Below, in pieces: positions 2,085 to 37,289 of a stretch of DNA of 41,366 nucleotides. The translations under genes and the position numbers were made by a program. The notes under the pieces were generated by a model. The model saw only the letters and a list, made by a program, of their open reading frames with translations. It was not told the origin of the DNA and made no database searches. The DNA lies in sequence record SRR22947725_1140; one strand, written 5' to 3'. How positions within the stretch are numbered: the first letter of the stretch is position 1; every line of letters begins with the position of its first letter.

Positions 2085-3743
2085 TTAGCTAAAACAACCC
2101 TGGCAAAACCAACCACCAGTCTTAAGCCCACCATGTGCATAATAAAGCCATAACCTCTCGCCTGTTTCAGTATCAATCTTCCAGTAATCCCTAACACCCG
2201 TTCTCCAGTTTGGGTCATCAAACCACCATTCAGGAGAGATCCGTTCAGGCCCTGTTTTGAAAATACTATTAAAGTAGCGCCCCCTCCATTTAAATTTTTT
2301 CAGTGGAGAAACATTATCCTGAACTTCAATAGGCTCTGGATTAAACAATACAGTTGGTCGTGAATAAACCTTTGAAATCCAATCAAAAAATGGTTCAGAC
2401 CACATTGCACCTGAAGTGATAAAAGATTTTTCAGGAATATGGCTTTCGGCAGAGTGCCAGCGAGTAATGGATTCTGTGCCCAGTCTCAGACTTATCCTAT
2501 TAAGGAAATGTTCAAAATCAGTATCTGTATTAGGTTTTTTAACTTCTAAATTATCTTCAGAAAGCTCCTTAACATATTGAGTTTCATAAACAGGTTCATA
2601 AATTTTTGTCTCTAAACGTATCAAATCAACACCAAACTCTGAAATAATTTCATCTAATTTCATACCTAAAAGTGTTAAAATTTTTTCTGTATCAAAGCTT
2701 GGCTGTGTTAGCTGGATATATATACTTTGTGTTGTACCATCTGTCCTAAATATCTGTAACTGTAATTTCCGAACTCCAAATCTGTTATTTTTTAACTTTT
2801 TACATAATGCTGGAACTAACTTTTCAAGGGCTAGTAAGAAATCACTTTTGAGCCCAATAGGCTCTGGCAACGTCAATCTGACAGAAAACCTTTTAGCAAG
2901 TTTTTCTGGAGACACCGGTTCCGGCTCAAGCCCTAAAATTTGATCTAAGCGAGTTAGTAAATCCCTTCCGAAACGTCTTGTTAATGGCGCTCGAGGTATT
3001 TCTAATAAATCTTTAATGCACCTAAACCCTAATCTTCTAAGAGATGTAACTTTGCTAAGTGGAAGCCTTAAGGATGCCAAAGGTAAGTTAGAAATGTACT
3101 CTCTTGTTTGCCCACAAGGGACTATAACATATTTAAAAGAACTGAACTCATTATTTTTTTGGTCAATAGTCAGACTATTAGGTTGATTACCCCTCTTAAA
3201 CGCACGTGCTCTAGTTGCACGTGCTTCTTGATCAATAATATCCCCAGTATAAAGCAATTCAGAAGTATTTTCTAGAAACCTAGACAAAGCCCAAGCAGCC
3301 CCAACAGTATCTGCTAATCCAATACGGGCCGTAAGCGAAAAGTTAGCACAATCTATTTTAAACGCTTCAATTAAACTTTTTTCTCCCCCAAACAAATGAG
3401 CACATCCAGTAATATCTATTAGAATTCCATCTGGTAGTTCTTTTTTTATCCATGGGGAATACTTTCCTGCCCATCGGGAAAGTAAATCTAAAAATCTGTA
3501 ATCCTCTTCCAAGTCAAAAAACCTGACGATAACATTAGGGCACCTTAAGATTGTGTCACGTATAGACTGACCAATAAAAAGTCCCTGTAGCTCTGCAGCT
3601 ACATTAAGATTACAGACTGTCCCTTGATTGCCTTCATTAAGTATAATTACTACTGGTGTTTCAAAGCTTATTTTTTCTTGTCGGACAACTCTCTCTACAG
3701 ACAGCCTTTTAAACCATAAAGATAACACACGACGATTAGACAA
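2085..3743 (-). CDS. imuB: ImuB-like catalytically inactive Y-family polymerase homologue
   Basis: YSPW..PDGILIDITGCAHLFGGE, LPLASLRL, RAPLTRRFG, C-terminal GPERISPEWW..RDYW..GERLWLY. TTG start with a GAGG RBS and a LexA box upstream. Confidence 0.88.
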   Translation of the reverse strand: MSNRRVLSLWFKRLSVERVVRQEKISFETPVVIILNEGNQGTVCNLNVAAELQGLFIGQSIRDTILRCPNVIVRFFDLEEDYRFLDLLSRWAGKYSPWIKKELPDGILIDITGCAHLFGGEKSLIEAFKIDCANFSLTARIGLADTVGAAWALSRFLENTSELLYTGDIIDQEARATRARAFKRGNQPNSLTIDQKNNEFSSFKYVIVPCGQTREYISNLPLASLRLPLSKVTSLRRLGFRCIKDLLEIPRAPLTRRFGRDLLTRLDQILGLEPEPVSPEKLAKRFSVRLTLPEPIGLKSDFLLALEKLVPALCKKLKNNRFGVRKLQLQIFRTDGTTQSIYIQLTQPSFDTEKILTLLGMKLDEIISEFGVDLIRLETKIYEPVYETQYVKELSEDNLEVKKPNTDTDFEHFLNRISLRLGTESITRWHSAESHIPEKSFITSGAMWSEPFFDWISKVYSRPTVLFNPEPIEVQDNVSPLKKFKWRGRYFNSIFKTGPERISPEWWFDDPNWRTGVRDYWKIDTETGERLWLYYAHGGLKTGGWFCQGCFS

Positions 3744-9284: not shown

Positions 9285-9614
9285 CTAATCATAAAATGCT
9301 GTTGTTTGGGATACAATAACAGCATTTTCGTCTAAAGCCTGCTTGATAAGTAAATGTTCATCCTCAGAAATATCATGTCCTTCCGCCACTCTTTCATCAA
9401 CACTCCCATACCCAGAAATATTCAGCGGAGATAATCCTGCTTTTTTAATAACTGCAGTCGTTTCCCTGACAGCCTCGTCCTCACTTACACCAGAAGAGTA
9501 ACACATCAAAGCAGCCCCTGTTGAGTTTTTAGGCAACCCATCATCTTTCTTCCGACCAACCTCCACTAGAAGAGTATAAACCGAATGCTTTTGATTTGTT
9601 TCTACTTTGCTCAT
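9285..9614 (-). CDS. Hypothetical protein (109 aa) between dapD and dapE
   Basis: ATG-initiated ORF, co-oriented with and tightly packed between dapD and dapE; plausible globular composition. Confidence 0.8.
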   Translation of the reverse strand: MSKVETNQKHSVYTLLVEVGRKKDDGLPKNSTGAALMCYSSGVSEDEAVRETTAVIKKAGLSPLNISGYGSVDERVAEGHDISEDEHLLIKQALDENAVIVSQTTAFYD

Positions 9615-13863: not shown

Positions 13864-14772
13864 ATGAATCTCACTGTAACAACTCACCAAGCGGAAGAAG
13901 ATATAAGAAATGAACAACTAAAAATATATGTAAATGGTGAAATTATTCCTAAACTCGAGGCAAAAATTAGTGTTTTTGACAGCGGGTTTATGTTAGGTGA
14001 TGGAGTCTGGGAAGGGTTAAGACTTTATGCAGGGAAATGGGCTTTTTTTGACGAGCACATGGATAGACTTTTTGAGGCAATTAAGGCTATTGATCTTGAT
14101 TTTAAACTGAACAGAAATGATATCCTTACTGCTTTGGAAGCAACCCGCTTGTCAAATGGTATAGAAACAAACGCTCATGCGAGGTTGATGATAACTCGAG
14201 GTGTTAAAACCCGTCCCTTCCAACATCCCTCCCTCAGCCAGTCAGGCCCAACCTTTGTTATAATTATTGAGCACTCAACTCCAAAAACACCTAGACCCAT
14301 AAAACTTGCAACTGTTCCTCATATTAGAGGACTTCCAATGACCCAAGACCCAAAGCTTAACTCTCACTCTAAACTAAACTGTATCCTTGCCTGCATCGCC
14401 GCAGAAAAAGCTGGAGCAGATGAGGCCTTGATGTTAGACATAAATGGTTTCGTCAACACAACAAATGCGTGCAACTTTTTTATAGTAAAAAAAGGAGAAA
14501 TTTGGACTTCTACGGGTGATTATTGTATGAATGGAATTACTCGAAAAAAAGTTATCGATATCTGCAAAGAAAATAGTATAATTATTCTTGAAAAAAACTT
14601 TAGTCTTGTAGATACATATAGTGCAGATGAGGCTTTTTTAACTGGAACGTTTGGTGCCCAAACTGCTGTATCAAGTATCGATGGTAGGGATATTGGAACT
14701 GGTAAAATGGGACCACGAACAGAAGAAATAAGACACTTATATTCTTCTTTAATAGCCCGTGAAATCAAATGA
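13864..14772 (+). CDS. PLP fold-type IV (aminotransferase class IV-like) protein with atypical active site
   Basis: SVFDSGFMLGDGVWEGLR, HMDRL, GITR, ADEAFLTGT. The canonical Lys and Glu positions appear substituted (see findings). Confidence 0.88.
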   Translation: MNLTVTTHQAEEDIRNEQLKIYVNGEIIPKLEAKISVFDSGFMLGDGVWEGLRLYAGKWAFFDEHMDRLFEAIKAIDLDFKLNRNDILTALEATRLSNGIETNAHARLMITRGVKTRPFQHPSLSQSGPTFVIIIEHSTPKTPRPIKLATVPHIRGLPMTQDPKLNSHSKLNCILACIAAEKAGADEALMLDINGFVNTTNACNFFIVKKGEIWTSTGDYCMNGITRKKVIDICKENSIIILEKNFSLVDTYSADEAFLTGTFGAQTAVSSIDGRDIGTGKMGPRTEEIRHLYSSLIAREIK

Positions 14773-15473
14773 AAATAGCAGCGTGGTCAGGACCACGCAA
14801 CCTGTCAACAGCGATGATGTACAGCTTTGGATCTAGGTCTGATACTATTATCTCTGATGAACCTTTTTATGCCTCATACCTGAAAGCAACTAACCTCGAA
14901 CACCCCATGAGAGCTAAAATTTTGGAGTCCCAGTCAAATAATCCACATGAGATTATTGAATCCTGCAATGGTCCGATCCCATTAAGTAAAGGTCTTTGGT
15001 ATCAAAAGCATATGTGTACTCACATTTTGGATAACATTTCACTAACCTGGGCTGAAAAATACACCAACATATTTCTAATTAGACATCCCTCTCGAGTTAT
15101 TAGTAGCTATGAAAGAAAACGAGAAAATCCAACCATCGATGATATAGGTTTCAAACAACAGTTAAAAATATTTAATAGTTTAGGTGGGGTAGTTATTGAA
15201 AGTAGTGACATATTGAAGTCACCTGAGAAAACACTGAAAACACTTTGTAGGCATATTAACATTAAGTTCGAGTCCAGAATGTTATCCTGGTCCAAAGGTG
15301 GCCACAAAGATGAGGGTGTATGGGGTGAACATTGGTACAACTCTGCTCACTTAAGTTCTTCTTTTGGCCCTCCTGAAGGGCCCATACCAAAACTATCAAA
15401 AAAACTAATTGAGCTTTATGAAGAAGCAATACCTATTTATGAGAAGCTATCATCTCATAAAATTAAAATTTAA
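14769..15473 (+). CDS. Sulfotransferase-like P-loop protein
   Basis: WSGPRNLSTAMM (5'-PSB-like loop) and LIRHPSRVISSY (3'-PB-like motif). ATGA overlap with the upstream gene. Confidence 0.8.
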   Translation: MKIAAWSGPRNLSTAMMYSFGSRSDTIISDEPFYASYLKATNLEHPMRAKILESQSNNPHEIIESCNGPIPLSKGLWYQKHMCTHILDNISLTWAEKYTNIFLIRHPSRVISSYERKRENPTIDDIGFKQQLKIFNSLGGVVIESSDILKSPEKTLKTLCRHINIKFESRMLSWSKGGHKDEGVWGEHWYNSAHLSSSFGPPEGPIPKLSKKLIELYEEAIPIYEKLSSHKIKI

Positions 15474-17148: not shown

Positions 17149-17196
17149 TTACGGCTACAGTTACAATTACAATTACAATTACAATTACAATTACAC
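17149..17196. repeat. Hexanucleotide tandem repeat (TTACAA)n
   Basis: TTACGG CTACAG (TTACAA)x5 TTACAC: 8 units, 5 of them perfect (17161-17190). Confidence 0.92.
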
Positions 17197-17637
17197 CTAT
17201 ATATTAAAACAGTCACGGACAAATTTTATATCTCCATCATTTGTCAATAATTTTCTAGCAACAGTTGGTGACATCCAAATAGCCGTATGTTCTAACTCTA
17301 ATGGCTCATGTTTTTTAATTACCGGTTTTGCCTTATAAATATGACATACCTTCTCTGCCCATAAATTATATTCAGGCATATAAGTAAAACGCCGGTAGAT
17401 GCCCAACTTTATTGGTTTGGATATTATCCAACCAGTTTCTTCCAAAATTTCCCGATGAAGAGCATGCAAAGGTTGTTCGCCCGGATCAATACCTCCGCCT
17501 GGTAGTTGCACTTCCTGACTTGATAGCCCTTGATGAGTTACTAATAAATTATTTTCTAAGGACAGAATTGCGTATACTCCAGATCGAGCTTTATACACTT
17601 TATCTGGTCTATAGGTCTCTCCAAAACGTCTAATCAT
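17197..17637 (-). CDS. NUDIX hydrolase
   Basis: Nudix box LPGGGIDPGEQPLHALHREILEETG. Confidence 0.92.
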   Translation of the reverse strand: MIRRFGETYRPDKVYKARSGVYAILSLENNLLVTHQGLSSQEVQLPGGGIDPGEQPLHALHREILEETGWIISKPIKLGIYRRFTYMPEYNLWAEKVCHIYKAKPVIKKHEPLELEHTAIWMSPTVARKLLTNDGDIKFVRDCFNI

Positions 17638-29004: not shown

Positions 29005-29874
29005 ATGACAGTGGCCTATGATAAGCGTGAAGGTTTAATCTGGATGGATGGAAAACTTATAAATTGGAAAGATGCTAATGTACACATTTTAACTCATGCA
29101 ATGCACTATGCTTCATCTGTTTTTGAAGGTGAAAGATGCTATAATGGAAAAATTTTTAAATCTAAACAGCACTCGGAAAGATTAAAAAGATCAGCATTAC
29201 TTATAGACTTTGAAGTTCCATACTCAATTGAGGAGATCGAAACTGCAAAAAAAGATGTGTTGAGAGCTAACAATCACAATGAAGCTTATGTTCGTGCTAT
29301 CGCGTGGCGAGGGGCTGGAGAAGACATGGGTGTAGCATCAGCAAAAAACCCTGTCAGATTGGCAATAGCTGCCTGGGAATGGGGAGCTTACTATGGTGAT
29401 GCTAAAATGAAAGGTGCCAAACTTGATATTTCTAAATGGAAACGTCCATCACCGGAAACGATTCCATGCGAAGCAAAAGCAGCTGGTCTTTATATGATAT
29501 GTACAATGTCTAAGCATGCGGCTGAAGCCAAAGGTTGCTCAGATGCTATGATGTTTGACTACAGGGGTTACGTTGCGGAAGCTACTGGGGCAAATATATT
29601 CTTTGTAAAAGACGGTGAGGTACATACACCAAAACCAGATTGTTTTCTTAATGGATTAACCCGGCAGACAGTTATAACAATGCTTAAAAAAAGAAATATT
29701 GTTGTGCATGAACGACATATAAGTCCCAGTGAGTTAGAGAGCTTTGAACAATGCTGGTTGACAGGTACAGCTGCTGAAGTAACCCCTGTTGGGGAGATCG
29801 GTGGCTACACATTCGATGTTGGGCATTTGACACAAGATATTTCAAAAAGTTATGACAGCCTTGTAAGAGACTAA
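29005..29874 (+). CDS. ilvE: Branched-chain amino acid aminotransferase
   Basis: HYASSVFEG, AKAAGLY (catalytic K158), VAEATGANIF (E192), LNGLTR, TGTAAEV. Confidence 0.93.
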   Translation: MTVAYDKREGLIWMDGKLINWKDANVHILTHAMHYASSVFEGERCYNGKIFKSKQHSERLKRSALLIDFEVPYSIEEIETAKKDVLRANNHNEAYVRAIAWRGAGEDMGVASAKNPVRLAIAAWEWGAYYGDAKMKGAKLDISKWKRPSPETIPCEAKAAGLYMICTMSKHAAEAKGCSDAMMFDYRGYVAEATGANIFFVKDGEVHTPKPDCFLNGLTRQTVITMLKKRNIVVHERHISPSELESFEQCWLTGTAAEVTPVGEIGGYTFDVGHLTQDISKSYDSLVRD

Positions 29875-36554: not shown

Positions 36555-37289
36555 TTGTCACCACGAAAAAAAACAAAACTAGAACGTCTACTGTCATTCA
36601 ATCAGCATCGGCGGCGTTTTGGAGGATCCCAGAACTTTTCTCGCATAGAGGATTTAACTACTCTTAGAAATTCAATTATCCAGGGCACTAAAAAAACTTA
36701 TACCCACGGCTCTTCAAAAAATTTATCTGAACACCTGGAAAGCTTAAAAAATGAGTTCGTTGGAGATTCTGAACTTTGTTATGTAGTCGCGAAAACAATC
36801 GTCTTAATTAGGCGTGAATCTAAAATAAAAGACAATTATAAAATTTTAGAAACTCTTTTAACTGAAGAGGGTGATTTTTTATTAAAGAATTTAAATTTAA
36901 GGTGGTTAGTTTCAATCTCAGATACAATCTCAGAGCACTCAAGTTGTCCTGAAACTAGAGCACTTGCTTTATGCGCAACGATATTGGGTAATACAGTAAA
37001 AATTTATGAGACAGAGAGATATCTAGAAAATAATACTAATTCAAAAGACGACCCTGAACGTCTTAGAATACTACAATCGGAGCGCGTTCCCTTAGTAGGT
37101 GGAATGTCTGGGTTTTGTATAGGAACTGATGATACACTTAGAAACATGCGCTTTAGAATGAATACAGTTTGTAAAACAAACCCTATTGGAAATATTTTGT
37201 TGGAAATATTTTCAAGAATTCAATACGAAGACACTGGCTACAGCAGACTAAAAAAACGACACACACGATCCAGAACTAGTTGGTGGTAA
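36555..37289 (+). CDS. Hypothetical protein in LPS-related cluster
   Basis: 244-aa ORF whose stop is separated by 1 nt from the GT25 start; motif LRWLVSISDT. The TTG start is uncertain. Confidence 0.75.
   Translation: MSPRKKTKLERLLSFNQHRRRFGGSQNFSRIEDLTTLRNSIIQGTKKTYTHGSSKNLSEHLESLKNEFVGDSELCYVVAKTIVLIRRESKIKDNYKILETLLTEEGDFLLKNLNLRWLVSISDTISEHSSCPETRALALCATILGNTVKIYETERYLENNTNSKDDPERLRILQSERVPLVGGMSGFCIGTDDTLRNMRFRMNTVCKTNPIGNILLEIFSRIQYEDTGYSRLKKRHTRSRTSWW

Follow-up and report, generated by a model that had tools for sequence, protein, structure and literature searches.

The closest described relatives of the protein considered here are those of PDB entries 7Z79, titled 'aminotransferase-like protein from Variovorax paradoxus', and 9J32, its 'mutant N174K', which were the best PDB matches recovered (E 2.5e-79 for 7Z79) and whose aligned stretches differ here solely in the replacement of Asn by Lys. 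In a 2022 paper in Crystals, 7Z79 reportedly binds PLP non-covalently, the cofactor being held through its phosphate; a literature search that left out most subscription journals returned nothing on the function of 7Z79, so that functional work or assays of N174K may exist outside it. Behind these in structural similarity stand archaeal BCATs (5CM0, 5E25, 5MQZ), and Lys-less fold type IV domains are further found joined to the PF19798 family in PF19798+PF01063 fusions, among them the 'BCAT-like' proteins of plants. As the residue changes described below are already known from 7Z79, their observation alone is not new; what is new here is the comparative genomic context.

The protein in question is the 302-residue product of a class IV gene at positions 13864-14772 (plus strand) of a 41,366-nucleotide stretch of DNA from sequence record SRR22947725_1140, hereafter the window. 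It matches PF01063 at 125.9 bits against a Pfam cut-off of 28.5, and its predicted model (pLDDT 95.5) superposes best on 7Z79 (Z 42.2, rmsd 1.2, 297 aligned residues), with the archaeal BCAT 5E25 behind at Z 38.2; profile and fold thus both place it in PLP fold type IV. The residues of interest lie between codons R155 and N204. Because MAFFT misaligns the Lys region when given only this protein and the window's canonical IlvE (29005-29874, plus strand; NF005726 506 bits, cut-off 396), which supplies ordinary BCAT activity, we used HMMER alignments to the solved archaeal BCATs, which are gap-free there and place Asn166 (14359-14361) at the Schiff-base Lys, Lys170 (14371-14373) at the Tyr, presumably the residue contacting PLP O3', and Thr199 (14458-14460) at the Glu facing the pyridine nitrogen. 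The preliminary description, made by manual alignment to IlvE, had assigned Asn to the catalytic Lys position, Thr to the Glu position and a Lys to the neighborhood of the conserved Tyr, all of which stand, as does its numbering of R147, K158 and E192 (and likewise Y163) in the window's IlvE. Equally borne out is its claim that the phosphate-binding elements are kept, namely the phosphate arginine Arg68 (14065-14067; 192/192 in the clade alignment described below), the G224-I-T-R227 motif (14533-14544; 80 of 80 genome loci) and the T260-G-T262 turn (14641-14649). All 80 genome loci compared, and all 120 of the nearest proteins, keep N166, K170 and T199 unchanged, so that these residues are not due to chance or sequencing error.

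Database labels and the overall fold would suggest an ordinary BCAT, D-amino-acid transaminase or ADC lyase. Against this, both hallmarks of class IV aminotransferases, the Schiff-base Lys and the pyridine Glu, are absent, the protein falls below all the NCBIfam IlvE, Dat and PabC cut-offs (TIGR01122 174.7 against 245.55; NF006185 220.4 against 363; TIGR01121 141.2 against 277.45; TIGR03461 89.1 against 176.85), and the nearest genome carries three further class IV genes. Judged from its sequence, the protein is not an ordinary aminotransferase, and we regard such an activity as exceedingly improbable.

To place it among its relatives we built an alignment of 192 Asn-clade sequences (including 11 of the 80 close loci; entries with stops or fewer than about 255 aligned residues were excluded), which form a single starred clade (99) in a FastTree tree. 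Asn occupies the Lys site in 190 of the 192, the Tyr site holds Lys in 113 and Arg in 79, and the Glu site holds Thr in 114 and Ser in 78, the combination that defines a 7Z79-like clade. With 7Z79 itself the protein shares 46% structural identity and the same three kinds of replacement, differing in Lys170 (Arg in 7Z79) and Thr199 (Ser in 7Z79); the 7Z79 subclade is found mostly in importer cassettes, whereas the window gene is coupled to a sulfotransferase gene. The archaeal BCATs share its fold (Z about 38), phosphate site, R53 and R107, but differ from it at the Lys, Tyr and Glu positions (here Asn, Lys and Thr) and at the clade-specific W49, Q120, H168 and N201. In a set of 125 distant representatives that span both sites, the combinations seen most often at the Lys, Tyr and Glu positions are N/K/T (41), the canonical K/Y/E (31), H/L/E (10) and N/R/S (8), from which we recognize, beside the Asn clade, a sister clade with His at the Lys site and the Glu retained (11 of 11 rows).

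Within the Asn clade R53, H105, R107, Q120, S169 and N201 are invariant (192/192). His105 and Arg107 (14176-14184) fall at substrate-pocket positions, His105 being a candidate base; Gln120 (14221-14223) lies in a loop where canonical rows are hydrophobic; and His168 (14365-14367; 187 of 192), replaced by Leu in seven of eight canonical rows, is a candidate acid/base. An N-terminal D-x-R-N motif (D13, R15, N16; 13900-13911), which 190 of 192 Asn-clade rows carry, His-type rows share in part and canonical rows lack, is a possible clade signature. The preliminary description had also offered a migrated catalytic lysine, with Lys170 or Lys164 forming the aldimine, and this part is not supported. 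Lys170 is indeed invariant among close relatives and sits next to the cofactor, but 79 of the 192 rows carry Arg170 and 78 of these have no Lys anywhere in 158-175; Lys164 (14353-14355) is not kept as Lys (the commonest four residues being K 94, R 80, H 6 and Q 3 of 192), 7Z79 has Arg at the equivalents of both positions, and the lysine of 9J32 was engineered at the Asn site. Furthermore, K- and R-types alike adjoin the sulfotransferase and use one importer family. The enzyme is thus probably not a migrated-lysine enzyme, and we give very little credence to the idea that it is one. Lys115 was considered as another lysine and dropped owing to its Arg substitutions (K 187, R 5 of 192). Since Lys and Arg alternate at position 170 while the surrounding pocket residues stay invariant, the active site looks maintained, with a cation rather than a nucleophile at that position.

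The preliminary description had overlooked both 7Z79 and the gene that follows directly. This gene (14769-15473, plus strand; 234 residues) encodes a protein matching PF19798 at 251.8 bits (Pfam), and its start overlaps the upstream stop codon by four bases (ATGA). All 50 of the fold matches listed for its predicted model are sulfotransferases, the top ones being 4GBM, 5WRJ and 4GOX, tied at Z 15.0. Residues G8-P9-R10, S13, T14, R105, P107 and S113 are invariant in 136 of 136 relatives and correspond to the 5'- and 3'-phosphate-binding (phosphosulfate) motifs of PAPS sulfotransferases; fold and motifs together mark the partner as a putative member of that group. An APS kinase is present in the nearest genome and in two others (G081, G1090), with a partial match in G880 and none in G1007; G880 carries an adjacent enzyme-sulfotransferase pair (L172) despite its partial match. 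The PF19798 gene lies directly 3' of the enzyme in 80 of 80 close loci, and an Atlas search returned PF19798 clusters alone. When the window pair was modelled as a complex with no alignments, the score was 0.00, which speaks neither for binding nor against it. A further PF19798 subfamily with weaker matches (E 1e-13 to 1e-22; loci L104-L107 and genomes G393, G399 and G432) stands away from the enzyme in the four loci examined.

Two of the three joint best fold matches of the partner, 4GBM and 4GOX, are CurM/olefin-synthase sulfotransferases, the third being the tyrosylprotein sulfotransferase TPST1 (5WRJ). The CurM/olefin-synthase enzymes activate a hydroxyl for elimination, sulfate being the leaving group; they act, however, on ACP-bound acyl chains together with a thioesterase and not with a PLP protein. 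Enzyme-PF19798 fusions occur in both the Asn and the His clades, the 13 long proteins picked as fusions comprising seven Asn-type and six His-type (P0139, P0157, P0162, P0183, P0194 and P0206). The plant 'BCAT-like' fusions resemble the window pair in joining a Lys-less fold IV domain to the PF19798 family; the His-type fusions differ in having His at the Lys site, a retained Glu and a single polypeptide. In ColD/E1-type PMP-dependent dehydratases, which are of fold type I, His likewise replaces Lys, and a PMP enzyme of this sort, which would condense with a keto substrate to a ketimine and then expel water or sulfate, would accord with the His-type sister clade and its sulfotransferase fusions. 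The window protein, however, is of fold IV, has Asn rather than His and has lost the Glu, and the neighborhoods contain no keto-substrate pathway, all of which renders this alternative quite improbable.

Across 251 Rhodobacteraceae genomes the two genes occur together in 163, the enzyme alone in seven, the sulfotransferase alone in one and neither in 80. The 170 enzyme-bearing genomes each gave one match, a meaningful result in that the search lists multiple matches where present; in one family from the same phylum, enzyme matches numbered 0 of 64. Linkage is looser than co-occurrence: among 40 divergent copies picked on long contigs, a sulfotransferase lay within the fetched stretch in three. 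An initial reading of sulfotransferase-less loci as sulfotransferase-less genomes proved wrong, most such genomes carrying the gene elsewhere. Of the seven enzyme-only genomes, five carry the enzyme gene within a polar amino-acid ABC cassette (L131, L137, L150, L287 and L288, the last reduced to a permease fragment at the contig start); in one of the remaining two a contig end truncates the locus, and the other is without explanation. Three of the five cassette-bearing genomes have weak PF19798 matches (E 1e-15 to 1e-18). By comparison, a cassette accompanies five of 38 unlinked copies with a sulfotransferase elsewhere (Fisher p 0.003 against the five of seven, for kin that are not independent), and a sixth would be L298, found afterwards. 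The importer cassette tends, therefore, to occur where the sulfotransferase is missing.

None of the 14 plasmid copies fetched (14 of 20 records) has an adjacent sulfotransferase match, and most lie in operons with a GntR regulator and polar amino-acid ABC genes. Where no sulfotransferase gene adjoins the enzyme, 35 of 87 loci carry a polar binding-protein gene within 6 kb; where one does, the figure is 0 of 139, and 33 short loci were excluded. This contrast is overstated because the probes were drawn from sulfotransferase-less loci and close kin make up 80 of the 139. Other transporters occur at some sulfotransferase-linked loci (L126, L187, L193). The binding protein is dedicated to these cassettes, with 11 of its 12 plasmid matches at 40% identity or more on records carrying the enzyme, and its K-type version in at least seven of the 251 genomes, every one of which has the enzyme. 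Its best solved relatives are AncCDT-1 proteins, which are cationic amino-acid binders, and the highest-scoring family for the binding proteins, although below cut-off, is the Lys/Arg/Orn one; the protein has no match in the hydroxyproline-cluster region of S. meliloti. We infer that the enzyme receives its substrate either from the sulfotransferase or through the importer, and therefore acts second.

These cassettes also bear on whether the protein is an enzyme at all. The loss of both catalytic residues with retention of the phosphate site, together with the reported holding of PLP in 7Z79 through its phosphate, could be reconciled with a non-catalytic PLP- or PMP-binding protein serving as a store, a carrier or a regulator of the sulfotransferase. 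Such a role is nonetheless improbable, given that the pocket residues R53, H105, R107, Q120 and N201 are invariant, that the gene is frequently unlinked from the sulfotransferase, and that in several cassettes (L114, L131, L231, L287) it is the sole gene that is neither for transport nor a regulator.

The P5C reductase gene proC accompanies Arg-type enzymes in L110, L111 and L115 and Lys-type enzymes in L150 and L152. Identity between the two proC lineages is 34%, each falls in a starred clade of its own (FastTree), and in both genomes checked the cassette proC is a second copy. A P5C dehydrogenase gene, cut off and scoring 607 bits against 613.6, heads the L214 operon. P5C consumers accompany the enzyme in cassettes from two distinct starred clades, and three independent associations of this kind in 87 loci have a rough chance figure of 0.004. 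The glycyl-radical trans-4-hydroxy-L-proline dehydratase HypD clusters with proC (PMC7077986), and on this precedent we read proC here as a potential consumer of the product. HypD would resemble the window system in the proposed net conversion of hydroxyproline to P5C and in its clustering with P5C reductase, while differing in its unrelated fold, its radical and anaerobic chemistry and the lack of any sulfation.

Genes of 3-hydroxyproline metabolism recur as well. A cis-3-hydroxy-L-proline dehydratase scores above cut-off in L141, L149 and L159, and L298 has a 61% homologue beside a sulfatase; a sulfatase accompanies the dehydratase gene in L141, L159 and L298. Genes resembling Pyr2C reductase, below cut-off, occur in L121 and L150, and the Ldh2 gene of L152 is 63% identical to one in an S. 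meliloti cluster that NCBIfam confirms as hydroxyproline-catabolic. In L118 a sulfatase gene overlaps that of the enzyme, and after it come genes of the DHDPS, DAO, ALDH and proline-racemase families, which belong to hydroxyproline catabolism according to PMC4113996, the available portion of which mentions neither class IV aminotransferases nor sulfatases. Several of the neighboring sulfatases exceed the choline-sulfatase cut-off and might simply be BetC. In one locus (L293; NZ_CP022418.1, 34413-44250) the same binding-protein family appears with a sulfatase, an enolase-family gene and a trans-3-hydroxyproline dehydratase, and with no PLP protein. The enolase-family gene, found also in L119, L121 and L150, may be an alternative eliminase; PDB searches with these enolase-family neighbors gave unassigned entries or nothing. 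Genes of 5-oxoprolinase type were seen too, as pxpBCA directly 3' of the enzyme in L144 and as hydantoinase/oxoprolinase-like genes in L232 and L193.

This clustering with P5C or Pyr2C consumers and hydroxyproline genes concerns a minority of the relatives, most of the 87 sulfotransferase-less loci being without such genes (proC in seven, sulfatase in seven, AcnX in three, OCD in four). Two of the seven proC matches (L232, L234) are 5 kb distant and could be housekeeping genes; we treated these, the bhc genes of L132 and the hut genes of L150 as incidental. The window's own locus has yggT and argG as neighbors and no proline-type gene. Elsewhere in the window, a spurious ORF at about 17150-17200 reads as a Tyr-Asn run and so betrays a short hexamer tandem repeat between two genes; ORFs 36555-37289 (244 residues) and 9285-9614 (109 residues) have no Pfam match, and ORF 2085-3743 (552 residues), with weak impB/mucB/samB matches only, is possibly an ImuB-like protein.

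Based on these contexts, we tentatively propose, with somewhat less than even confidence, that the protein follows the sulfotransferase as a PLP lyase that needs no lysine, most likely one that forms a pyrroline-carboxylate from a hydroxyproline O-sulfate by elimination of sulfate. Taken by itself, the role of an eliminase downstream of the sulfotransferase strikes us as evenly balanced, and the elimination-type chemistry envisaged in the preliminary description gains support by inference from the gene neighborhoods, while the non-covalent PLP binding that it also considered is in line with the behavior reported for 7Z79; that the substrate is hydroxyproline O-sulfate is a possibility we hold as rather doubtful. 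The sulfotransferase would carry out a PAPS-dependent O-sulfation of an amino-acid hydroxyl in an adjacent N-C-C-OH arrangement, most likely that of a hydroxyproline, turning the hydroxyl two carbons from the nitrogen into a leaving group. PLP, held non-covalently as the free aldehyde, would condense directly with the ring nitrogen to form an iminium. We propose that the Lys would be dispensable because a lysine aldimine would compete with iminium formation, and the pyridine Glu because the permanent charge of the iminium would serve as the electron sink. His168 or His105 would then take the proton next to the nitrogen and sulfate would depart, aided by Lys or Arg170, after which hydrolysis would yield P5C from the 4-O-sulfate or Pyr2C from the 3-O-sulfate, and ProC, Pyr2C reductase or P5C dehydrogenase would convert these to proline or glutamate. 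We know of no PLP enzyme that uses a secondary-amine iminium; the pyruvoyl enzyme D-proline reductase does form an iminium with proline. The enamine released from serine O-sulfate inactivates PLP enzymes that contain the Lys, and such inactivation by O-sulfates is a possible further reason to drop the Lys. Under this proposal the importer cassettes would scavenge the preformed sulfate ester. In genomes without an importer, such as that of the window, the pair may recycle or detoxify endogenous hydroxyprolines, which is the weakest step of the scheme.

Literature searches, outside which most subscription journals lay, found no mention of hydroxyproline O-sulfate, the matches being six collagen papers that mention 4-chloroproline; nor did they yield a paper on a PAPS-aminoacrylate route to taurine. 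The fungal protein PpzF is presumably a PF19798 relative, in a cluster whose NRPS, we believe, uses 4-hydroxyproline. In PMC6926027 4-hydroxyproline is the substrate of PpzA, and the accessible part of that paper does not mention PpzF, hence we give this lead no weight.

The same neighborhoods also accommodate activation and elimination on a primary amine, in which the O-sulfate, or a halogenated analogue, of 4-hydroxyornithine or 5-hydroxylysine would be converted to glutamate semialdehyde/P5C or to P6C with release of ammonia, in parallel to known pairs of a kinase and a phospho-lyase. ProC and P5C dehydrogenase would be equally compatible with such products, and the kinship of the binding proteins with AncCDT-1 and, below cut-off, with the Lys/Arg/Orn family counts in favor of this route. 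A CLC channel gene, which could export halide, accompanies Arg-type cassettes (L110, L111, L112, L115, L214) and may hint at a halide leaving group; these CLC neighbors matched none of the CLC motif patterns tried. An MmgE/PrpD-family gene near the enzyme or importer (L113, L116, L153, L296) may mark yet another substrate, and neither it nor the CLC gene is explained by the hydroxyproline reading. However, the known ammonia-lyases of this kind keep their Lys, the loss of which a primary-amine substrate leaves unexplained, as it does the 3-hydroxyproline dehydratase and the Pyr2C-reductase-like neighbors; we accordingly judge this route unlikely.

Returning to sulfate elimination from a hydroxyproline, the scheme would amount to an oxygen-tolerant route from hydroxyproline to P5C or Pyr2C, by O-sulfation and then Lys-free PLP elimination through a secondary-amine iminium, a conjecture that in this full form we consider doubtful. 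Were it true, it would represent a new mode of PLP catalysis, reveal a circulating sulfated metabolite with its own importer, extend marine, soil and plant metabolism by a sulfated imino acid, and provide a function for the fused 'BCAT-like' proteins of plants and algae. The clade is large, conserved and mis-annotated, and many other organisms have it fused to its partner; the neighborhood evidence narrows the question of its function to a few direct assays, and, should the hydroxyproline reading be wrong, the dedicated binding protein would still offer a direct route to the ligand.
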